Below, one piece after another: positions 2,184 to 39,834 of a stretch of DNA of 41,275 nt; position 1 is the stretch's first letter, and the number at the start of each line of letters is the position of its first letter. The stretch comes from Chiloscyllium plagiosum (lineage: Eukaryota). Position numbers and translations under genes: made by a program. The stretch is from assembly GCF_004010195.1 (NCBI RefSeq), contig NC_057719.1:8412442-8453716 (forward strand). Reading direction: 5' to 3'. The notes beneath the pieces are model-generated. The model was not told the DNA's origin. It ran no database searches and saw nothing but the letters and a program-made list of their open reading frames with translations.

Positions 2184-2404
2184 GGGGGAAAATGAGTACT
2201 GCAGATGTTGGAGATTAGAGTCAAGAGTGTGGTGCTGGAAAAGCAGAGCCAGTCAGGCAGCATCCGAGGAGCAGGAAAATGGATGTTTAGGGCAAAAGTC
2301 CTTCATCAGGAAGCCCTGATGAAGGGCTTTTGCCTGAAACATCCATTTTTCTGCTCCTCGGATACTGCCTGACCTGCTGTGCTTTTCCAGCACCACACTC
2401 TCGA
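2184..2404. mobile_element. Palindromic Penelope-like (PLE family 1) head-to-head terminal-repeat element
   Basis: Arms inverted about CTTCATCAGG-AAGC-CCTGATGAAG; flanked by GTCTTAGTGGAAC / GTGTTATTGGAAC (11/13 degenerate TSD). Confidence 0.85.
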
Positions 2405-3129: not shown

Positions 3130-3578
3130 TGATGGAATAGGCTCCACTGTCAGAATGGATGCAGCTCCAACAGATGGGTTACCATCTGGGACGAAGAGGT
3201 TCTCTTCAGTGATTCACAAAAAAATCACCGTGTTCAACATACATATGCTTCAGTAGTGACACACAGTAGCAGCTCTATGTACCATCTCCAAGATGCACTG
3301 TGTAACTCACCCAGACTTCTCTGACAGCACCTTCCTAACTCACTGTCTCAACTATTGAGAAGAAGGAGGCAGCAAACACGTGGGAGTTTTGGCAATGGGT
3401 TCCCCTCCAAGCCACTCACCATCCTGACTTGGAAATATGTCAGCCATTCCTTTACCGTCACTGGGTCCAAGTCATGGAAATCCTTCCCTCGCGGTATTGT
3501 GGATGTGCCCACACCCTAATGAATGTACCAGTTTACAAGTCAGCTCACAACCACCTACTCAGGAGCAATTAGGAAGGA
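3130..3578 (+). mobile_element. Old LINE 3' region (second CR1/L2-group lineage, 'family B')
   Basis: TTCCCCTCCAAGCCACTCACCATCCTGACTTGGAAATAT...CAGCTCACAACCACCT..GCAATTAGG; homologous segments at 9243-10530(-), 19835-20190(-), 28980-29113(+). Confidence 0.75.
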
Positions 3579-3712
3579 TGGACTTATGCCCGAAGGGCTT
3601 ATGCTCAAAACGCTGATTCTCCTGCTCCTTGGATGCTGCCTGACCTGCTGCGCTTTTCCAGCAACACATTTTTCAGCTCTGATCTCCAGCATCTGCAGTC
3701 CTCACTTTCTCC
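3579..3712 (+). mobile_element. PLE family 1 terminal repeat
   Basis: GAAGGGCTTATGC..AAACGCTGATTCTCCTGCTCCTTGGATGCTGCCTGACCTGCTG...CCAGCATCTGCAGTCCTCACTTTCTCC. Confidence 0.85.
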
Positions 3713-4140: not shown

Positions 4141-4616
4141 TAAGTGCAAAATCTTTGTTTTTTTTTGGGGGGGGGGGGGGGGGGGTTGTCCACCACATTG
4201 TTTGCAGTTGTATTGATTTTCTTGCATTATCACCCCTGAAGTTGTCAATTAAGAGGATTTTGTTTCGCACATAATTTGTTATGATCTAGACTGCACTGAC
4301 TAGGAAAGATTTAGATTCAGAAGGGAATTGGATAAATACCTGGTGAGGGGAAGATTGCTTGGAAGAGCTGGGGGGAAAGAGAAGGGTGAACTGGACATGT
4401 CTAAGCTTTCTGGCAGAGTGTGAGATGGGCCAAATGGTCTCCTCTAACAGTTCACCATTTAACAATACTACGACATCCCTCTTTGACAAAAGATTGCAAA
4501 TGTGTGAGAATAAATTGTAGATTCCTTACAACAGAGGAGATTATAGTGAGATTGAGCAAATTGATCAGATAACATCTTCTATCCTTACCTGTGACTTTTG
4601 ACCTACTAATGCAATT

Positions 4617-4843
4617 AGGCAAAAGTGGGGACTGCAGATGATGGAAACCAGAGTTTAGATTAGAGTGGTGCTGGAAAAGCACAGCAGGTCAGGCAGCATA
4701 CGAGGAGCAGGAAAATCAATGTTTTGGGCAAAAGCCCTTCATCAGGAATTCCTGATGAAGGGCTCCAGCCCGAAACATCGATTTTCCTGCTCCTCGGATG
4801 CTGCCTGACCTGCTGTGCTTTTCCAGCACCACTCTAATCTAAA
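4617..4843. mobile_element. Palindromic PLE family 1 element with perfect 14-bp TSD
   Basis: Inverted arms around GCCCTTCATCAGG-AATT-CCTGATGAAGGGC; CTACTAATGCAATT at 4603-4616 and 4844-4857. Confidence 0.92.
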
Positions 4844-4957
4844 CTACTAATGCAATTGCCTCTTCACCGCCCTCTGGGTAATTAGGGATTGGCAATAACT
4901 ACTGGCCTAGGAAAAGACACCCATTAATGAGAAATCACAAAAATCATCTAATCATCT

Positions 4958-5543: not shown

Positions 5544-5777
5544 ACGGACTCAGTGGGCCCAGTACGGACTAAGTTGGCCCACCACGAACTCAGTGGGCCC
5601 AGCACGGACTAAGTGGGCCCAGCACGGACTCAGTGGGCCCAATCTAGACTAAGTGGGCCCAGCACGGACTCAGTGGGCCCAGCACAGACTCCGTTGGCCA
5701 GCACGGACTCAGTGGGCCCAGCACGGACTAACCTGGCCCAGCACGGACTCAGTGGGCCCAGCATGGACTAGGTTGGC

Positions 5778-5905
5778 CCTGAAGAAGGGCTTATGCCCGA
5801 AATGTCGATTCTCCTGTTCCCTGGATGCTGCCTGACCTGCTGCGCTTTTCCAGCAACACATTTCCAGCTCTGATCTCCAGCATCTGCAGACCACACTTTC
5901 TCCTC
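5778..5905 (+). mobile_element. PLE family 1 terminal repeat inserted in minisatellite
   Basis: CCTGAAGAAGGGCTTATGCCCGAAATGTCGATTCTCCTG...CCAGCATCTGCAGACCACACTTTCTCC. Confidence 0.9.
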
Positions 5906-6335
5906 CAGCATGGACTAAGTTGGCCCAGCACGGACTCAGTGAACCCAGCACGGACTAAATGGGCCCAGCACGGACTACGTGGGACCAGCACGGACTAGGT
6001 TGGCCCAGCACGGACTAGGTTGGCCCAGCACGGCTAGGTTGGCCCAGCACGGACTCAGTGGGCCCAGCACGGACTCAGTGGGTCCAGCACGGACTAAGTT
6101 GGCCAGCACTGACTCAGTGGGCTCAGCACGGACTAAGTTGGCCAGCATGGACTCAGTGAGCCCAGCACGGACTAAGTGGGCCCAGCACGGACTAAGTTTG
6201 TCCAGCACGGACTCAGTGGGCCCAGCACGGACGAAGTGGGCCCAGCACGGACTCAGTGGGCCCAGCACGGACTCAGTGGGCCCAGCACGGACTAAGCTGG
6301 CCCAGCACGGACTCAGTGGGCCCAGCATGGACTAA

Positions 6336-7239
6336 TAGGTAAAAACGAGGTAAAAACAATGACTGCAGATGCTGGAAACCAGATTCTGGATCAGTGGTGC
6401 TGGAAGAGCACAGTAATTCAGGCAGCATCCGAGGACAGGCAAAATCGACGTTTCGGGCAAAAGCCCCTCATCAGGAATAAAGGCAGAGAGCCTGAAGCGT
6501 GGAGAGATAANNNNNNNNNNNNNNNNNNNNNNNNNNNNNNNNNNNNNNNNNNNNNNNNNNNNNNNNNNNNNNNNNNNNNNNNNNNNNNNNNNNNNNNNNN
6601 NNNNNNNNNNNNNNNNNNNNNNNCGGCGGTGGAGGAGGCCCAGCATCTCCATATCCTCGGCAGAGTGGGAGGGGGGAGTTGAAATGTTGAGCCACTGGGC
6701 GATGTGGTTGGTTGGTGCGGGTGTCTCGGAGGTGTTCCCTAAAGCGCTCTGCTAGGAGGTGTCCAGTCTCCCCAATGTAGAGGAGACCGCATCGGGAGCA
6801 ACGGATGCAATAGATGATATTAGTGGATGTGCAGGTAAAACTTTGATGGATGTGGAAAGCTCCTTTGGGGCCTTGGATAGAGGTGAGGGAGGAGGTGTGG
6901 GCGCAGGTTTTACAGTTCCTGCGGTGGCAGGGGAATGTGCCAGGATGGGAGGGTGGGTCGTAGGGGGGGCGTGGACCTGACCAGGTAGTCACGGAGGGAA
7001 CGGTCTTTGCGGAAGGCGGAGAGGGGTGGGGAGGGAAATATATCCCTGGTGGTGGGGTCTGTTTGGAGGTGGCGGAAATGTCGGCGGATGATTTGGTTTA
7101 TGCGGAGGTTGGTAGGGTGGAAGGTGAGGAGCAGGGGGGTTCTGTCCTTGTTGCGGTTGGAGGGGTTGGGTCTGAGGGCGGAGGTGCGGGATGTGGATGA
7201 GATGCGTTGGAGGGCATCTTTAACCACGTGGGAAGGGAA
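6336..7239 (-). mobile_element. Neptune-type Penelope-like element, 5'-truncated: RT C-terminal linker, Cys-rich motif, GIY-YIG endonuclease, terminal repeat (gap 6511-6623)
   Basis: RTPLLLTFHPTNLRINQIIRRHFRHLQTDP...PCHRRNCKTC...FTCTSTNIIYCIRCSRCGLLYIGETGHLLAERFREH, frameshifted; possible TSD ATGGACTAA. Confidence 0.95.
6441..6478 (-). ncRNA. Minimal type-I hammerhead ribozyme motif in PLE terminal repeat
   Basis: Minus strand CUGAUGA-G-GGGC-UUUU-GCCC-GAAA-C-GUC: intact core, helix II, palindromic ACGU helix III; PLEs are known to carry such motifs; activity not demonstrable from sequence. Confidence 0.75.
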
Positions 7240-9242
7240 ATGGACTAAGTTGGCCCAGCACGGACTCAGTGAACCCAGCACGGGCTAAATGGGCCCAGCA
7301 CGGACTAAGTGGGACCAGCACGGACTAGGTTGGCCCAGCACGGACTAGGTTGGCCCAGCACGGCTAGGTTGGCCCAGCACGGACTCAGTGGGCCCAGCAC
7401 GGACTCAGTGGGTCCAGCACGGACTAAGTTGGCCAGCACTGACTCAGTGGGCCCAGCACGGACTAAGTTGGCCAGCATGGACTCAGTGAGCCCAGCACGG
7501 ACTCAGTGGGCCCAGCACGGACTAAGTGGGCCCAGCACAGACTAAGTGGGCCCAGCACGGACTAAGTGGGCCCAGCACGGACTCCGTTGGCCAGCACGGA
7601 CTCATGGGGCCCAGCATGGACTCAGTGGGCCCAGCACGGACTAAGCTGGCCCAGCACTGACTCAGTGAGCCCAGCATGGACTAAGTAGGCCCAGCACGGA
7701 CTCATTGGGCCCAGCATGGACTAAGTTGGCCCAGCATGGACTCAGTGGGCCCAGCATGGACTAAGTTGGCCCAGCACGGACTCAGTGGGCCCAGCACAGA
7801 CTCAATGGGCCCAGCACGGACTAAGTTGGCCAGCATGGACTCAGTGGGCCCAGCATGGACTAAGTTGGCCAGCACGGACTCAGTGGGCCCAGCACGGACT
7901 AAGCTGGCCCAGCATGGACTCAATGGGCCCAGCATGGACTAAGTTGGCCCAGCACGGACTCAGTGGGCCCAGCATGGACTAAGTGGGCCCAGCACAGACT
8001 AAGTGGGCCCAGCACGGACTCAGTGGGCCCAGCACGGACTCAGTGGGCCCAGCACGGACTCACTGGGCCCAGCACGGACTAAGGTTGGCCAGCACGGACT
8101 CAGTGAACCCAGCACGGACTAAATGGGCCCAGCACGGACTAAGTGGGACCAGCATGGATTGGTTGGCCCAGCACGGACTAGGTTGGCCTAGCACGGCTAG
8201 GTTGGCCCAGCACGGACTCAGTGGTCCCAGCACGGACTCAGTGGGTCCAGCAGGGACTAAGTTGGCCAGCATGGACTCAGTGAGCCCAGCACGGACTAAG
8301 TGGGCCCAGCACGGACTAAGTTGACCCAGCACGGACTCAGTGGGCCCAGCACGGACTCAGTGGGCCCAGCACGGACTCAGTGGGCCCAGCACAGACTCAG
8401 TGGGCCCAGCACAGATTCAACGGGCCCAGTGCAGACTTGAGTGGGCTCATCATGGACTCATTTGGCCCAGCACGGACTCGGTGGGCCCAGCATGGACTCG
8501 GTGGGCCCAGCGTGGATGCATGTGGGTCTAATAGCTTGCCAGTGCGCATGCCTGAAGATTGGTCAGCTGCTTGAGGCACTAAACTGTTGTTACCTTCTGA
8601 GAAACAGTGCTGTCAATATCTCCAGGATGCATGAGTGAATTAAAGTAAACCATCTTTTAAGTTTAAAGTTAAGTTTATATTTAAACCAGCCCAATCCTTG
8701 GATGGTTAAGTTTGCTTTGGACGAGTATCAACCACCTTACACTGCAAAGAACTGATGGATCAGTCACCCTGCCTCCTATAATGTCTTGCTTCATCACCTT
8801 CACCACTCCCGCATGCATGAGCAAGCTTACTCATGCAGTTCCCATTACAATCTACTCACCGTGGGTCTGGCTCTATCTAACTTCCAAGAAAATTATTATT
8901 CAGTTCATCATGTGTGGGAAATCATATAAATAGCACTACAAAATAAAATTAAGCGGCATAAATCATTTTAGTTAAGTTATTCATGCAATACCTCCTGCAT
9001 TTTGCCTTACCTTGCTGATGGAATCATTTGTTTTTCACCTGCATACATTTTCTCCCTTTTACACAAATTGCAGTTTGTTAAGAATGGATTGTGTTAGATA
9101 TTTTTGCATAAACATAAATATGAAAGGGTCAGAGACTGAGGAATGGCAATCACAGTTGATTGCTGCTCTGCTCCTATTTTTTATTGCAATAAAGGAGCTC
9201 CACACTTTTGACTGGGACTTATATACCCGCCTCTTTAGAAAT

Positions 9243-10530
9243 TTATTCACTTGCGAGATATAAGTGTCACTGGTTGGACCAGCATCCATTGCCTGGCCCT
9301 AGTTTCCTGTGAGCAGGAGGGGGTAAGCTGCCTTCATCAACCACTGCAGTCCGTGTGCTGTATGTAGACATACATTTCAAATCCGCCTCTCACTCTGCGA
9401 GGACATGCAGATCCCGGGCCTCCTCTGTTGCCACTCCCTCACCACCCAACACCTGGAGGAAGAATGTCTCATTTTCTGCCTTGGGACCCTTCAACCCCAG
9501 GGCATCAATGTGAACTTCACCAGTTTCCTCATTTCCCCTTCCCCCCCGACCTTACCTCAGTTCCAACCTTGCAGCTCAGCAACGTCCTCATGACCTGTCC
9601 CACCTGTCAATCTTCCTTCCCACCTATCCACTCCACCCTCCTCTCCGACCCATCATCTTTACCCCTTCCTCCATCCACCTATTGCGCTCTCAGCTACCTT
9701 CTCCCCAGTCCCACCTCCTCCCATTTATCTCTCCACCCCGGAGACTCCCAGCCTCATTCCCGATGAAGGGCTCTGGCCTGAAACATTGATTCTCCTGTTC
9801 CCCAGATGCTGCCTGATCTGCTGTGCTTTTCCAGTAACACACTCTTGACTCTGATCTCCAGCATCTGCAGACCTCACTTTCTCCTGATGGACATACAATG
9901 CCCTGCGGGAGGGAATTCCAGGATTTTGACCCAGTGACGGTGAAGGAACAGTGACATATTTCCTATTTGAATGGTTAGAGACTTGGAGGGGAACATGCAA
10001 GTGATGAAGCTCCCATGTATCTGCTGCCCCTGCCCTTCTAGATGGAAGTGGTCATGTGTTTCAAAGGTGCTGTCTTGAGATGTTTGGTGAATTTCTGCAG
10101 TGCATCTGGTAGATAGTAGCAGCAGTGTGTACTGAGCATCAATGGAGGGAGTGGATGTTTGTCAATGTGGTGCCACTCAAACAAGTTACTTTGTCCAGGA
10201 TGATGTCAAGCTTCTTGAGTGTTCTTGGAACTGCACCCATCCCGGCAAGTGAAGAGTATTTTATCACACTCTTGACTTGTGACTTGTAGACTTGGATCGC
10301 TTTTGGGGAGTCATGAGGTGAGTTGCTTGCTGCAAGATTCCTAGCCTCTGATTTGCTCTCGTAACCTCGGCATTTGTATCACTACTCTATTCTGGTCAAT
10401 GATAATCCTCAGGATGCTGATGGTGAAAGGTGCAGTGATGGTAGTACTGTTTAATATCGAGGGGCAATGGTTAGATTCTTTCTTGTTGGAGATGGTCATG
10501 GCCTGGTACTGTGTGGCATAAATGTCACTG
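9243..10530 (-). mobile_element. LINE family B 3' portion, split by a PLE insertion
   Basis: CCACTGCAGTCCGTGTGCTGTA|GGGAATTCCAGGATTTTGACCCAGTGAC...GGTTAGATTCTTTCTTGTTGGAGATGGTCATGGCCTGG. Confidence 0.8.
9374..9886 (+). mobile_element. PLE family 1 fragment: GIY-YIG C-terminus plus terminal repeat
   Basis: DMQIPGLLCCHSLTTQHLEEECLIFCLGTLQPQGINVNFTSF; terminal repeat from ~9757; GACATACA on both flanks. Confidence 0.92.
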
Positions 10531-10879: not shown

Positions 10880-11382
10880 AGTAGAATTAATGTTTCAAAT
10901 CCAGTGACTCTTCATCAGAACTGTTCTGATGAAGAATTACTGGACTTGGAATGTTCATAGAATCCCGAGAGTGTGGAAGTAGGCCATTCAGCCCATTGAG
11001 TCCACACCAACCCTCTGAAGAGCATCCAACCCAGACCCACCCTGTCCCTGAAATCCTACATTTCCTATGGCTAACCCATCTAGTTTACACATCCCTAGAC
11101 ACAATGAGCAATTTAGCATGGCCAATCCACCTAATCTGTGCATCTTTGGACTGCAGGAGAAAACCCACGCAGACAAGGGCAGAACATGCAAACTCCACAC
11201 AGCCAGTCGCCCGAGTGTGGAATTGAACTCGTGACACGGGTGCTGTGAGGCATTCATGCTAATCGTTGAGCCACCGTGCCTCCCCATTATATCTGCTTTC
11301 TTCCCATTGATGCTACCTGACCTGCTGAGTTTCGCGAGCAATTTCCATTTCAGATCTCCAGCATCTGCAGTTCTTTGTTTCC
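10880..11382. mobile_element. Palindromic PLE family 2 element, interrupted by HE1
   Basis: TCCAGTGACTCTTCATCAGAAC-T-GTTCTGATGAAGAATTACTGGA; right arm resumes at ~11290 (GATGCTACCTGACCTGCTGAGTTT...CCAGCATCTGCAGTTCTTTG). Confidence 0.75.
10956..11285 (-). mobile_element. HE1-type V-SINE
   Basis: TGCAAACTCCACACAG..GTCGCCCGAG and GAGCCACCGTGCC head on minus strand. Confidence 0.9.
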
Positions 11383-15126: not shown

Positions 15127-15252
15127 ATGAAGGGCCTTTGCCCGAAACGTTGATTTTCCTGCTCCTCAGATGCTGCCTGACCTGCTGTGCTTTTCTAGCA
15201 CCACTCTGATCTAATCTCTGGTTTCCATCATCTGCAGTCCTCACTTTTGCCT
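15127..15252 (+). mobile_element. PLE family 1 terminal repeat
   Basis: ATGAAGGGCCTTTGCCCGAAACGTTGATTTTCCTGCTCC...CTGCAGTCCTCACTTTTGCCT; TCTCTGCA on both flanks. Confidence 0.88.
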
Positions 15253-15596
15253 ATTCTCTGCACCTACACCAGTGTGCCTACAAAATGGTATCCAGTGAGG
15301 CTAGCAGCAGTAGCATGTATATGGCCCTCAGACTCCAAAAGAAAACATACACATGATGCCAAAACCTGGACACGATGAAGCTGAGTGGTGTGGGCATCTA
15401 TCTGGGCGTACTTGCCCTGTTGGTTACCAGAGCTGGTGCTGTGCTAATTTGGCCACCAGCTTTCCTGCATACCAGAAGTTCTGACTTCATTGGCTGAGAA
15501 GTGTTTCAGAATCAGTTGAAAGGTGCCCTCTGTAACTGCCACAATTTTCCATTTGCAAGTTAGCTTACCCCTTGCCCAATGCTGCTCATTTAACAA

Positions 15597-20429: not shown

Positions 20430-21299
20430 AGCTATGACTGGGTTAAAACTTTAAACTGCAGTGTCACCAAACTAGTTTCTTTTTTTTCTAAAACCTGCTC
20501 CTTTGCTCAAGGATACTCTGTCCTTGATTTTTTCAGAGGGGTAATAAACTAGGCCGGGCTCCGATCAGTCTGGTTTGGTACAGAGATGAAAGGGATTTTG
20601 AGAGGCCTTTTGTTTATATACAAACAAACAGATGAGACTTCAGGCCAAAGTGGTCATGTTTTAGAAGTGATCTGTATAAAGAAAATTGAGTGGTCAGCTT
20701 TCTAGCTGAGCTGAACAGTTTAGTTCAGTCCTGAACTGGTTGGAAGTTCAACAGGGAGCTGTGTGGAAACTCTCTCTTTTCTGTCCTTCAACTTCAACCT
20801 GTAAGCATGTGTTCCATTTATACTGGTTTTTAAAGGGAGTTTGCTTATTGGGACTTTTGTATATATTCGGAACAGCATAATTAACTTTAGTTTGGACAGA
20901 CTGAGTTCTGTAGGGGTTCTTTATTCTGTTCTTTGTGTTTCATTGTGTAATTTTGTGAATACATATCTGTCTGTTCTAAAATCTAGTAAGGCAAAAGTGA
21001 GGACTGCAGATGCAGAAAATCAGAGTCGAGATTAGAGTGGTGCTGGAAAAGCACAGCATCCAAGGAGCAGGAAATGATGAAGGGCTTTTGCCCGAAACGT
21101 CGATTTTCCTGCTCTTCGGATGCTGCCTGACCTGCTGTGCTTTTCCAGCACCACTCTAATCTAGACTAAAATCTAGTAGTCAACCTAGCTAACTTACTCC
21201 GGGTCATTTTCACTGTACACTTACCAAAACAAATTGCAAAGTTATGGTTTGGGGCTGCCAGCTTTAGAACGTTTTGAGTGGTCTGGCCTGTCCATAACA
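20430..21299 (+). mobile_element. Probable solo LTR with nested PLE palindrome
   Basis: Ends GTCTGGCCTGTCCATAACA; degenerate (GC)TATGAC start; LTR-like composition. Confidence 0.6.
20989..21165. mobile_element. Palindromic PLE family 1 element (centre deleted) with perfect 13-bp TSD
   Basis: CTAAAATCTAGTA at 20976-20988 and 21166-21178; same start (AGGCAAAAGTG) and end (CACTCTAATCTAGA) as the 4617 copy. Confidence 0.92.
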
Positions 21300-22331: not shown

Positions 22332-22752
22332 TCAGTACAATTATAACACTTAAAAGGCATCTGGATGGGTATGTGAATAGGAAGGGTTTAGAGGGATATG
22401 GGCTGGGTGCTGGCAAATGGGACCGAGCTTGGATTGGGATATCTGACAAATGGGACTAGATTGGATTGGGATATCTAGCAAATGGGACTAGATTGGATTG
22501 GGATATCTGGCAATGGGACTAGATTGGATTGGGATATCTGACAAATGGGACTAGATTGGATTGGGATATCTGGCAATGGGACTAGATTGGATTGGGATAT
22601 CTAGCAAATGGGACTAGATTGGATTGGGATATCTGGCAATGGGACTAGATTGGATTGGGATATCTGACAATGGGACTAGATTGGATTGGGATATCTGGTT
22701 GGTTCGGATGGGTTGGACCAAAGGGCCCACTTCCATGCAGTATGAGGCTATG
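22332..22752 (+). mobile_element. CR1 3' end with internal tandem expansion
   Basis: TTAAAAGGCATCTGGATGGGTATGTGAATAGGAAGGGTTTAGAGGGATATGGGC..GGGTTGGACCAAAGGGCC. Confidence 0.9.
22414..22698 (+). repeat. 9 x 31-32 bp tandem repeat CAA(A)TGGGACTAGATTGGATTGGGATATCTRR
   Basis: Units counted directly. Confidence 0.97.
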
Positions 22753-26472: not shown

Positions 26473-26949
26473 GGTTGGGTAACTGAATTGTTTGAGAATC
26501 TGGGAAAGATTGGGCTTCTTATAGCATAAACTCAGTGGGCTGAATGGCCTTCCTGTGTGCCCTAATACTGAACAGTACAAAGTTGGGTTGGGAAGCAAGC
26601 AGCGAAGAGGACACCAAGAGGTTACGGAGAAGCTGGAGTTATGATGTGCCCATTGACAAGACCATGGCAAATTGAATACAGTGGAGTGGAATTGGGGGGT
26701 AGCCCTGGTTATATCCATACCTCTGAACCAGGAGGGTTGGGTTCAAGTCCCACCTGGTGTGCCATAACATCTCTGAGCAGGTTGATACAAAATATTTACA
26801 ATGTGGCAGAGTCACTTGGCATTCTAAAATTGATTCTCCCTTCCAAGTTGCTGATTTGAATGCAAATCATTCTTGACCTAACCATTGGAAGTTCTGATCC
26901 CGAAGATAGGTTAGTGCATGACCCCAGGCTACGGGACAGTAAAGTTAAA

Positions 26950-27140
26950 CAAAGAACTGTAACGAAAACAGGACTTCCAGGACAAACTCAGAAATTACCA
27001 AAGAAACACAGCAAGTCTGGCAGTATCTGGGGGGGAGAAAGCAGAGTTAACGTTTTGGGGTCCAGTGACCCTTCTTCAGGACTCTGGTTGGTGACCCGAA
27101 ATGTTAACACTTCCTTCTTTCCACAGACGCTCCCAGACAG
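26950..27140. mobile_element. Palindromic PLE family 2 element (decayed)
   Basis: GTTAACGTTTTGGGGTCCAGTGACCCTTCTTCAG ... GACCCGAAATGTTAAC..CCACAGAC. Confidence 0.7.
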
Positions 27141-29114: not shown

Positions 29115-29321
29115 ACAGAATTATAGAATCCCAACAGTGTGGAAGGAGGCCATTCGGCCCTCTGAACAGCAGCCCACCCATACGCACACCCCTACTCTAT
29201 CTGTGCATTTCCCACAGCCAATCCACTCTAACTTGCACATCTTTGGACTGTGGGAGTAAATTGGAGCACCCAGTGGAAACCCACACAGACACACAGGGAG
29301 GATGTGCAAACCCCACACAGT
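29115..29321 (-). mobile_element. HE1-type SINE lacking its tRNA head (abuts PLE)
   Basis: TGCACATCTTTGGACTGTGGGAG..GGAGCACCC..TGTGCAAAC.CCACACAG. Confidence 0.85.
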
Positions 29322-29982
29322 TACTTCCCTCCAAGGCCCCAAGGGACACTTCCATATCCACCACAAATTCACCTGCACCTCCACACACATCATCTATTGC
29401 ATCCACTGCACCCGATGTGGCCTCCTCTATATTGGGGAGACAAGCCGCCTACTTGCGGAACGTTTCAGAGAACACCTCTGGGACACCCGGACCAACCAAC
29501 CCAACCACCCCATAGCCCAACACTTTAACTCCCCCTCCCACTCCACCAAGGACATGCAGGTCCTTGGCCTCCTCCATCGCCAGACCATGGCAACACGACG
29601 GTTGGAGGAAGAACGCCTCATCTTCTGCTTGGGAACCCTCCAACCACAAGGGATGAACTCAGACTTCTCAGTTTCCTCATTTCCCCTCCCCTCACCTTGT
29701 CTCAGTCAAATCCCTCGAACTCAGCACCGCCTTCCTAACCTGCAATCATCTTCCTGAACTCTCTGCCACGACCCCACTCCGGCCTATCAACCTCACCTTG
29801 ACCTCCCTCCACCTATCGCATTTCCAAAGCCCCTCCCCCAGGTCCCTCCTCCCTACCTTTATCTTAGCCTGCTGGACACACTTTCCTCATTCCTGAAGAA
29901 GAGCTTATGCCCGAAACGTTGATTCTCCTGTTCCTTGGATGCTGCCTGACCTGCTGCGCTTTTCCAGCAACACATTTTCAGC
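29322..29982 (+). mobile_element. PLE family 1 fragment with open GIY-YIG endonuclease domain plus terminal repeat
   Basis: FTCTSTHIIYCIHCTRCGLLYIGETSRLLAERFREHL..PIAQHFNSPSHS..RRLEEERLIFCLGTLQPQGMN; CTGAAGAAGAGCTTATGCCCGAAACGTT at ~29893. Confidence 0.95.
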
Positions 29983-32099: not shown

Positions 32100-32207
32100 G
32101 GTGCCCAGGCTGGCCCCCACCCCTCCTATTTATCTCTCCACTCTGCAGGCACCCTGCCTCTATTCCTGATGAAGGGTTTTGCCCGAAATATCGATTTTCC
32201 TGCTCCT
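32100..32207 (+). mobile_element. PLE family 1 terminal-repeat fragment
   Basis: TTCCTGATGAAGGGTTTTGCCCGAAATATCGATTTTCCTGCTCCT. Confidence 0.8.
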
Positions 32208-37490: not shown

Positions 37491-37690
37491 CAGTGTCAGA
37501 GGTCACACGACACCAGGTTACAGTCCAACAGGTTTACTTAAAATCACAAGCTTTCAGAGCTTTTAAACTTCACCTGATAAAGTGGCAATGCTCTGAAAGC
37601 TTGTGATTTCATATAAACCTGTTGGACTTTAACCTGGTGTCATGTGACTTCTGACACTGTCCACCTAAGGCCAACACTGGCACCTCCATA
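37490..37690. mobile_element. Palindromic PLE family 3 element
   Basis: GTGTCAGAGGTCACACGACACCAGGTT..AAGCTTTCAGAGC mirrored by GCTCTGAAAGCTT..AACCTGGTGTCATGTGACTTCTGACAC. Confidence 0.85.
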
Positions 37691-38124: not shown

Positions 38125-38412
38125 ACTCTTATACCTATCATGTTATTCCAGTCATTTGGTTTGTTTCCAGCACCACCTTATTTTTAATTTTTTGTAATTA
38201 TCTCTCTACCTCAACTAATCGGATCATTGGTCATCTCTTCACTTGCTATTCAGCCTGCTGACACTCAACTCACACCATTTGTATCATCTTTGACACTCTT
38301 AATTATCTTGCAATGATCTGTCCGCCTATAAATTCTGTGCCTGTGTGCTTCCCTCCATTTCACCCGACAAAGGAGCAGTGCTCTGAAAGCTTGTGATTTT
38401 AAATAAACCAGT
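38125..38412 (+). mobile_element. PLE family 3 3' region; terminal repeat resumes at 39202-39270
   Basis: CACCCGACAAAGGAGCAGTGCTCTGAAAGCTTGTGATTTTAAATAAACCAGTT | GGACTATAGCCTGGTT..CCCAGTCCAACACTGACACCTCCACATC. Confidence 0.75.
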
Positions 38413-39201
38413 TAAAAAATCACACAACACCAGGTTATAGTCCAGCAGGTTTATTTGGAAGCACTAGCTTTCGGAGCGCTGCTCCTTCATCAGGTGGTTG
38501 TGGGGGTTAAGATCATGCTCACAGAATTTATAGCCAAAAGAGTCCATGTTATGGAAACGTGATACAGTAAACAATCTTAGGTTAAAACTTTCATCTTTTA
38601 TAATGGGATATGTTGGTTTCTGTTCTTTGAATTGTAAATCCCAGAACTTCTTTTAAATTACATTCTCAAGATAGCTCAGCTTTTTAAACATTAGGTGTGA
38701 AATCTGTCTGTGTCCCAATGCCATGTCAGACTGACAAACCCTCTGTTTAGTTTTACATGGATTTGTGCAGTTTTTGAGCTAAAAAAAATGTAATTCTGCA
38801 AAAACAAATTCACCCCATAAGCTTATATATGTAGGAGCGACAGATTGTGTGTGAAAGAGAGAGAGGGAGAGAGAGTATTGCGCAATGGGGTCACCTGTAG
38901 TGTGATATGAATCCAATCCCAGTTGAGGCCATTTCCATGGGTATTGAACTTTGCTATCAGCCTGTGTTTGGCCACCATGCATTGTTGCTTGTCCCAAAGT
39001 CCGCTTTAGTGGACAGTCATCCAAAGGCCCGAGGCCGAATGTCCCTCACCGCTGAAGTGTTCCCTGACTGGGAGGGAACACTCCTGCCTGGTGATTATTT
39101 TGCGGAATCCATTCATCCGTTGTCATAGCGTCTGCTCAGTTCCCCCCAATCTCCTAAACCTCAGGGCATCCTTGCCTGCAGCGTAGGAGATAGACCACGC
39201 T
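38413..39201 (-). mobile_element. PLE family 3 fragment: decayed GIY-YIG endonuclease plus terminal repeat
   Basis: Minus strand VVYLLRCRQGCPEV*EIGGTEQTL*QRMNGFR..SLPVREHFSGEGHSAS..RLIAKFNTHGNGLN. Confidence 0.9.
38461..38497 (-). ncRNA. Minimal hammerhead ribozyme motif (PLE family 3)
   Basis: CAC-CUGAUGA-A-GGAGC-AGC-GCUCC-GAAA-GCUA-GUG: core, 5-bp helix II, palindromic AGCU helix III, CAC/GUG helix I. Confidence 0.72.
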
Positions 39202-39834
39202 GGACTATAGCCTGGTTATGTGTGACGTCTGATCTTGTCTAACCCAGTCCAACACTGACACCTCCACATCCTACACAGTATGACCACGGGTCAGAAAAAC
39301 CAAGATGCAATCTTAAAAAGACAAACATCGCAGTGTCTCTCCAAAGGCTGTCTGAGGCAGACCAACATTCAAGTGTTGATCTAAATAATTTAAATCCAGT
39401 CAAATCCTCAAACTGAATTCAATAATCTCACCAGAATAATACTGCAGTGTAGAGGGTTAAATTAAACATATTCCATTAGCTTGATGTGTGTTTTCTTGCA
39501 CTAGAAGATGACCTGTTTGATAAATTTGAAAGGATTCAAGTGGGTAAATACAGAGAAATGATTCCGAGCAAATCCACGCTTTGAGAAAATTTAAATCTTG
39601 CTAAAAAGAGAAGCATGTTGTTAAAGCTTTTTATATTGTGCTCACCTGGACAAATGCAAGAATGCCAATTTTCGTACAGTGACAGCAATGTCATTGTCAG
39701 CTGCCCCTCGATTCGAGGATGATGTGTTCACAGAGTTGTGGTTTTATACATGTTGATGTGGATTTAAGATACTGGCTTTCGTATGACGGAATAAGTAAAT
39801 TTTTGAACTGGGCACGCTGGGCAGTGGAATCTAG

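Follow-up and report, generated by a model that had tools for sequence, protein, structure and literature searches.

Introduction

Penelope-like elements (PLEs) typically leave an inverted truncated copy and a one-sided tail of 30-40 bp at their insertion sites (PMC8557442). In A. vaga, inverted pseudo-LTRs (pLTRs), one of them with a 31-bp tail, are joined head-to-head at palindromic junctions and are enclosed by target-site duplications (TSDs) of 8-10 bp (PMC3846280), and in D. virilis the tail measures 34-37 bp (PMC2377424). The PLE tail of 30-40 nt corresponds to the stretch between two start sites of the reverse transcriptase (RT), which in the Poseidon element PAc of Anolis carolinensis lie about 100-130 nt 3' of the hammerhead; the Poseidon protein, a predicted dimer, cuts and extends both target strands, and uncleaved RNA is its main template (PMC11167929). 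How PLEs make their tandem and inverted insertions is still open (PMC8557442, PMC11167929).

The short palindromes of shark DNA described here resemble the units of EN+ PLEs (PMC3846280, PMC8557442, PMC2377424) in their head-to-head pLTRs, the tail on one arm, the TSD around the unit and the palindromic junction. They differ in being reduced to two pLTR ends with no ORF between them, in TSDs of 12-14 bp as opposed to the 8-10 bp of A. vaga (PMC3846280), and in arms that end near the 5' edge of the hammerhead, whereas the inverted repeats of D. virilis are described as variable-sized (PMC2377424). As in PAc, two RT start sites bound the tail, but PAc belongs to Poseidon and not to Neptune, and the available text on it describes neither palindromic stubs nor a preferred 5' stop (PMC11167929). 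Metazoan PLEs carry the same minimal type I hammerhead motif, including thousands of solo motifs; in Schistosoma, however, opposite-strand pairs lie about 100-700 bp apart, whereas the paired cores found here start about 7 bp apart and, unlike the motifs described, miss the native distal helix I strand (PMC4209133). Non-LTR retrozymes are likewise non-coding and PLE-related, with a type I hammerhead and long TSDs, but they consist of head-to-tail repeats that give circular RNAs, whereas a head-to-head palindrome cannot form a same-strand dimer (PMC7229834; preprint 10.64898/2026.07.22.740005). The literature searched, outside of which most subscription papers lie, contained no ORF-less palindromic PLE stubs in sharks and no PLE twin priming.

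Results

The palindromes are ends of a Penelope-like element

The window, that is, the whole stretch of 41,275 nucleotides from Chiloscyllium plagiosum that was analysed, consists of shark-like DNA rich in repeats, among them LINE RT fragments, SINE-like repeats, satellites and fragments of PLEs. The proteins closest to one of its PLE endonuclease fragments come from Chiloscyllium punctatum (85% and 77%), Rhincodon and Stegostoma, and one homologue (P0010) combines RT and GIY-YIG in one protein; no PLE RT was recognised within the window itself. Two GIY-YIG ORFs, at 6625-7097 (PF01541, E 6e-5, above the cutoff) and at 29260-29757 (PF01541, E 2e-4, just under the cutoff), both contain YxIxCxxC..YIG and both continue into one terminal sequence, the end of family 1, which in sense order consists of a pyrimidine-rich 3' UTR, a minimal hammerhead, about 90 nt, the inner end point P2, a 37-nt tail and the outer end point P1. 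Upstream of the GIY-YIG domain, the ORF at 6625-7097 has the CX2-5CxxC linker, a mark of Neptune and Nematis (PMC8557442). A profile made from the window's own copies yielded 19 arms, of which 14 belong to family 1 and 5 are related to it, and the minimal hammerhead motif occurs in the pLTRs of three families.

The preliminary description had ascribed the palindromes to PLEs, and this origin is borne out, as the GIY-YIG-coding copies end in the same terminal sequence. It follows that the long arm of a palindrome is the true 3' end of the element and that the short arm, located 5' of it, is a copy in inverted orientation and without the tail; a one-sided tail, an inverted truncated copy on the 5' side and a TSD, the traits of an EN+ PLE insertion, are all present. 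The palindromes derive from an EN+ PLE, which its linker marks as being of Neptune/Nematis type. Coordinates are given in Table 1, in which positions within the element are counted from C3 of the hammerhead core as +1.

Table 1. Palindromes, solo stubs and long PLE copies in the window, with the parts of the palindrome at 4617.
Feature	Position	Strand	Remarks
Left TSD of the 4617 palindrome	4603..4616	+	14 bp, perfect; null 1 of 1290
Long arm, true 3' end of the PLE pLTR	4617..4748	sense on -	
Tail	4617..4653	-	37 nt between P1 (4617) and P2 (4654)
Minimal hammerhead remnant on long arm	4718..4745	-	G of GAAA lost (CpG decay)
Inversion junction	4745..4752	.	centre 4748/4749; self-complementary AT common to both arms
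Short, tail-less arm	4749..4843	sense on +	ends at P2
Minimal type I hammerhead core	4752..4779	+	predicted cut after 4779; topology from PMC4209133
Right TSD of the 4617 palindrome	4844..4857	+	
Second palindrome, other subfamily	2184..2404	.	long arm 2184-2312 (-), short arm 2315-2404 (+)
Third palindrome, lopsided	20989..21165	.	long arm 20989-21074 (-), short arm 21075-21165 (+)
Short family-2 palindrome, about 70 bp	10885..10957	.	centred at -4; arms reach neither P1 nor P2
Degenerate family-2 palindrome	26944..27140	.	tail-bearing arm on -; short arm ends about 30 nt early
Family-3 palindrome	37496..37690	.	tail-bearing arm on + from -1; tail-less arm on - ending at +5
Long GIY-YIG-coding family-1 copy	6345..7240	-	CX2-5CxxC linker; ends with tail; assembly gap inside
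Long GIY-YIG-coding family-1 copy	29321..29982	+	ends at P2, tail-less; no inverted partner found
Long non-palindromic family-1 copy	9375..9885	+	end of EN region, 3' UTR, hammerhead, tail; ends at P1
Solo stub	15127..15252	+	+4 of the hammerhead core to P1; TSD 15117-15127/15252-15262 (10/11)
Solo stub	5778..5904	+	-1 to P1; within 20-bp satellite

The element is very abundant: contigs of three organisms gave 78854, 73547 and 60363 pieces that matched the copy at 9350-9920, so that about 79,000 contig pieces of one run match a single copy. In a metagenome scan, a 32-base pattern gave 0 loci, and 48 loci found with a 19-base pattern were dropped as chance matches, with similarity never exceeding 34 bases. 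A gap-split 20-bp satellite at 5544-8511 (38 and 64 copies) houses the PLE insertions 5778-5904 and 6345-7240, and the TSD of the former is indistinguishable from the satellite period; the TSD core of the copy 9375..9885 is 9367-9374/9890-9897. Further side observations are a solo stub at 3575-3712 with its 5' end at +6, preceded by a duplicate of about 14 bp of hammerhead stem II and with no TSD found; a family-1 piece at 32110-32207 (UTR and hammerhead) that ends at about +42, well short of P2, with an unrelated repeat from about 32222; and a tandem array of 31-32 bp (9 copies) at 22410-22698, adjoining a LINE 3' fragment.

Three family-1 palindromes with a common asymmetry and different centres

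Arm alignment shows that the three head-to-head pairs reported at 2184, 4617 and 20989 are all real. At 4617, the arms 4652-4748 and 4749-4845 match in inverted orientation over 97 nt (94%) with no spacer, and at 2184 the arms 2214-2310 and 2315-2411 match at 88%, with a 2-nt filler (2313-2314) between them. The long arm at 4617 begins 4 nt upstream of the hammerhead core, extends to P1, the outer RT start site, and is 93% identical to the solo copy at 15127-15253. The long arm overhangs the short one by exactly 37 nt, the length of the tail, in all three copies, which upholds the common asymmetry that had been proposed.

A single common axis just 5' of the hammerhead core was not recovered, as the centres differ: the arms share an AT at 4617, located at -4/-3, 2184 has its filler, and 20989 is lopsided, its long arm ending at about +31 and its short arm beginning at +2. 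The long arm of the latter is without a hammerhead, carries a 12-bp deletion and stops 1-3 nt from the predicted cut site; a later deletion at the centre explains this ending near the cut equally well. A deletion between two CAGGAA repeats as the source of this junction was rejected, as it does not reproduce the junction.

The TSDs were evaluated against a null of 1290 random position pairs. Those at 4617 (14/14) and 20989 (20976-20988/21166-21178, 13/13) are perfect, as had been claimed, and scores as high as theirs were reached by 1 of the 1290 pairs; that at 2184 (2171-2183/2405-2417) matches at 11/13 as described but is marginal, at the 4% level of the null. The TSD sequences of the family-1 palindromes are unrelated to one another. 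It should be noted that CT, the first two bases of the TSD at 4617, also continues the element, so that this TSD measures 12-14 bp; such an overlap occurs in two of the three family-1 palindromes and leaves the position of their short end uncertain by 2 nt.

Among the six family-1 arms, three characters are diagnostic of a copy (column 29 and the indel block 82-87 in 2184, column 91 in 4617) and none is diagnostic of a side, with three palindromes readable. The private column-91 variant shared by both arms at 4617 would fit one template or arm-to-arm conversion. Three adjacent bases of loop II differ between the same two arms, and the loops of the 4617 short arm and of the copy at 9368 are each one CpG decay away from one tetraloop; as a sequence pattern, this would hint at two templates.

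Families 2 and 3

The same architecture had been assigned to two further families. It is present in family 3, in which the palindrome has a tail of 35-38 nt (37655-37689) and a weak TSD (37484-37495/37693-37704, 10/12); family 2 resembles it at the centre only. The best TSD of the short family-2 palindrome has 6 bp, lies at the 11% level of the null and is not convincing, and for the degenerate one at 26944..27140 a TSD was searched for and not found. The segment 37507-37643 of the family-3 palindrome matches five Rfam microRNA models, all below threshold (best E 4.6e-6, 41.5 bits against a cutoff of 81), and the palindrome is a likely source of false microRNA calls. A long family-3 copy at 38414-39198 (-) ends at P2 and apparently lies inside the terminal repeat of another family-3 copy (38326-38413 plus 39199-39269), with a tail-to-tail look and no TSD seen. 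Its ORF remnant seems to resemble the C-terminus of a PLE endonuclease.

Outer ends

P1 also terminates long copies and solo stubs in the window, and P2 also terminates two long copies without inverted partners (29321-29982 and the family-3 copy 38414-39198); this independent use makes P2 a start site by itself. In all four TSD-bearing palindromes, P2 is also where the short arm ends, and the target end there has 2 nt (4617, 20989), 6 nt (37490) or 0 nt (2184) available for pairing with the RNA.

P1 is a sharp end genome-wide: in the three organisms, 2829 of 14353, 1767 of 12550 and 2349 of 11865 partly fitting contigs have their loose ends at 9884-9886. A second class of 311, 292 and 246 contigs is clipped at 9834, and its consensus is element-like to about P2 and AT-rich thereafter; the assignment to P2 comes from a 30-letter consensus of the clipped ends (agreement 0.46) and not from a base-level count, with 24 of 2400 rows of loose ends listed. 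No strand change was seen among these 24 rows or among the 15 listed of 282 joints in the sequences matched to 9350-9920. The two outer ends correspond to copying start points already known for PLEs and are not new, and the tails of 37 nt in family 1 and 35-38 nt in family 3 agree with the 30-40 nt that separate the two RT start sites (PMC11167929) and with the one-sided tail of inverted pLTRs (PMC3846280).

Hammerhead content and predicted folding

Each strand of the palindromes had been said to read a CUGAUGA..GAAA motif, which is not the case. In a strict motif search, the CUGANGA..GAAA core was found in two of the six arms, at 2316 and 4752 and on the + strand only; the - strand arms at 2184 and 4617 have both lost the G of GAAA, and at 20989 the + arm is without C3 and the - arm without the whole core. 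The Rfam hammerhead families had no match anywhere in the window at E<=1, the six Rfam matches obtained all being microRNA models under their gathering scores. In the short arm at 4617, the predicted cut follows 4779, 31 nt from the axis, and the helix III palindrome has decayed. Distal helix I pairing, with differing sequences, is present in all six UTR-bearing copies (duplex energies from -4.4 to -9.4, given without a null).

RNA of the palindrome is predicted to form one hairpin of about 95 bp (-177 kcal/mol, z -23.8), which cannot form a hammerhead and in which the motif would be buried together with the whole pLTR apart from its tail. A hexamer present twice in the pLTR allows the inverted arm at 4617 to provide a potential 6-bp substitute for the distal helix I strand that has been lost (4743-4748 with 4784-4789), a pairing that the long hairpin would out-compete. 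It was also observed that a pyrimidine tract followed by CAG|G lies 17 nt before the hammerhead core in 32110-32165 (+) and 6475-6511 (-), where it overlaps the distal helix I strand, and is not clear in the copies 9760 and 29893; this recalls the intron end at helix I of D. virilis (PMC4209133).

Clustering of 5' ends at the front edge of the hammerhead

One 5' end per insertion was assigned by hand from the alignments. Ten of the 16 short insertions (5' end within -60..+45) fall in the interval -4..+6 (scan statistic p about 4e-5), the 11-nt width of which was picked after inspection of the data; four long copies were left out of this test, and the overall count is 10 of 20. Several inputs outside the cluster are approximate, and the palindrome at 26950, with its end at +1, was entered as -1, which leaves the count unaffected. 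Where an inverted arm or a TSD fixes the end, seven of eight insertions fall in the same interval (p about 5e-5); where neither does, upstream sequence from an unknown subfamily could pass for truncation.

The predicted cut site is +29 (topology from PMC4209133), about 31 nt 3' of the axis, so that cleavage does not set the axis, and hammerhead cleavage as its cause was rejected. What remains new is that the 5' junctions gather at -4..+6 relative to the hammerhead core, away from its cut site; in the literature searched, with most subscription papers outside it, no 5' hotspot or clustering at the hammerhead is described. Single-cell poly(A) reads on 9350-9920 showed no place where many molecules begin or end as an RNA start site would; read depth falls about 11-fold upstream of the hammerhead (1415 versus <=132), a drop confounded by divergence of the reference copy. 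For D. virilis, a start site more than 100 nt upstream of the hammerhead, beyond an intron, can be deduced from PMC2377424 and PMC4209133.

Discussion

The palindromes are very probably products of integration and not a unit element, and for the making of each of them we lean towards two-ended target-primed reverse transcription by a Neptune-type PLE. The RT/GIY-YIG protein, probably a dimer, would make two nicks, one per target strand and 12-14 nt apart, whose 3' overhangs correspond to the TSD. Of the freed 3' target ends, one would prime at P1 and the second at P2, which lies 37 nt closer to the 5' end of the PLE RNA; at 4617, the top-strand end would yield the antisense copy from P1 and the bottom-strand end that from P2. 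As a rule, each of the two short cDNAs would come to a halt no more than a few bases from the 5' edge of the hammerhead core, and the pair would be joined end to end by a 2-nt overlap, a short filler or a lopsided trim, so that the product would be a head-to-head pair with a one-sided tail and a TSD. Priming at one end only would give a solo stub or a longer 5'-truncated copy.

The two arms would thus have been primed independently. Their common stop could be the 5' end of the RNA, with initiation on the upstream pLTR and run-off, or a block at helix I; most simply, it would be the 5' end, at which an RT that had begun on the upstream pLTR would arrive. Tentatively, a Neptune dimer might hold two different RNAs, and initiation on the upstream pLTR might produce cDNAs of about 130 and 95 nt, comparable to strong-stop products, that run off a fixed RNA 5' end shortly before the hammerhead core and are joined. 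A minority of the long arms, with 20989 as the one case, may stem from hammerhead-cleaved RNA.

The geometry alone cannot separate two-ended priming from fold-back copying, in which a P1-primed cDNA would stop near the 5' edge of the hammerhead, loop back and copy itself, the copying being resolved about 37 nt from the target junction, so that the palindrome would be an integration by-product of one template. PMC3846280 reads palindromic inverted junctions as self-priming, and the self-complementary AT overlap at the centre of 4617, the copy-specific variants common to both arms and the 2-nt CT overlap of the short end with the TSD in two of three copies, which fits a switch onto the target overhang, all agree with such copying. 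However, P2 also terminates long non-palindromic copies and is a measured RT start site in Poseidon (PMC11167929), the 3-base loop block differs between the arms at 4617 and resembles the loop of another copy, and the centres at 2184, 10880, 20989 and 37490, which contain fillers or are lopsided, have the look of end joining. Two-ended priming is favoured because P2 is used alone by long copies, because both strands are extended in vitro (by the Poseidon protein) and because of loop II at 4617, a single case in arms that have a private variant in common elsewhere; fold-back copying appears rather improbable. The suggestion in the preliminary description of a programmed point in PLE integration is essentially right, with the qualification that the outer ends are already explained by two RT initiation sites.

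The same description had also proposed a discrete, unit-length retrozyme- or MITE-like element, for which a palindromic master would be transcribed and re-inserted whole by Neptune RT/GIY-YIG. The outer ends are indeed fixed, the lengths are similar, and the centres of 2184 and 4617 both lie at -3.5, as expected of copies from a common master; pLTR sequences are all that mobilisation in trans requires in cis (PMC3846280), and PLE ends can yield non-autonomous derivatives (preprint 10.64898/2026.07.22.740005). Scattered short-arm ends, which had been named as counter-evidence, were not seen, but the two ends are fixed in all copies of the PLE, long coding copies and solo stubs included, and are therefore no sign of a unit-length element. 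Against a master also stand the differing centres, the sorting of variants by copy (no side-diagnostic versus three copy-diagnostic characters, a small number, and arm-to-arm conversion could erase side-specific variants), the spread of palindromes over at least two subfamilies and three families, and the RNA hairpin of about 95 bp, which would bury the hammerhead and the pLTR except for the tail. The three centres, the copy-specific arm variants, the several subfamilies and the parallel in family 3 together indicate that the palindromes probably formed independently at each landing, and a unit element is quite unlikely.

A still smaller chance is given to origins outside PLE integration. Deletions readily arise at the centre of palindromes and may account for 20989 and 26950, and an inverted duplication of a solo stub by repair or replication after insertion could be imagined; but the palindrome in its entirety sits exactly between the two copies of a single TSD, and in every TSD-bearing case P2 is where the short arm ends, so that this is very improbable. 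The same applies to an ordinary DNA-transposon MITE, which has symmetric terminal inverted repeats and a fixed short TSD, whereas here both arms are PLE ends, the ends differ by 37 nt, and the TSDs vary in length, with 13-14 bp of unrelated sequence. A non-LTR retrozyme spreading via self-cleaved circular RNA can practically be set aside: hammerhead motifs and long TSDs are present and retrozymes derive from pLTRs, but they need head-to-tail repeats with at least two same-strand hammerheads (PMC7229834; preprint 10.64898/2026.07.22.740005), whereas the motifs here are on opposite strands, mostly broken (2/6 intact) and predicted to be buried in the hairpin, the boundaries lie elsewhere than at the cut site (+29), and the window contains no tandem array with hammerheads.

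The palindromes are the smallest form of the standard inverted insertion of PLEs, and the element itself is not new; the title under which they were first noted overstates their discreteness and hammerhead content. In annotation, the appropriate label for them is PLE fragment, in place of MITE, retrozyme or microRNA hairpin. The stubs display both start sites and the junction within 230 bp, and with a family of such abundance, assigning each arm to its subfamily across a shark assembly could decide computationally between two-ended priming and self-priming. If run-off on two RNAs were true, head-to-head inversions would be explained without an antisense template, and shark genomes would hold a very large fossil record of a PLE replication intermediate.
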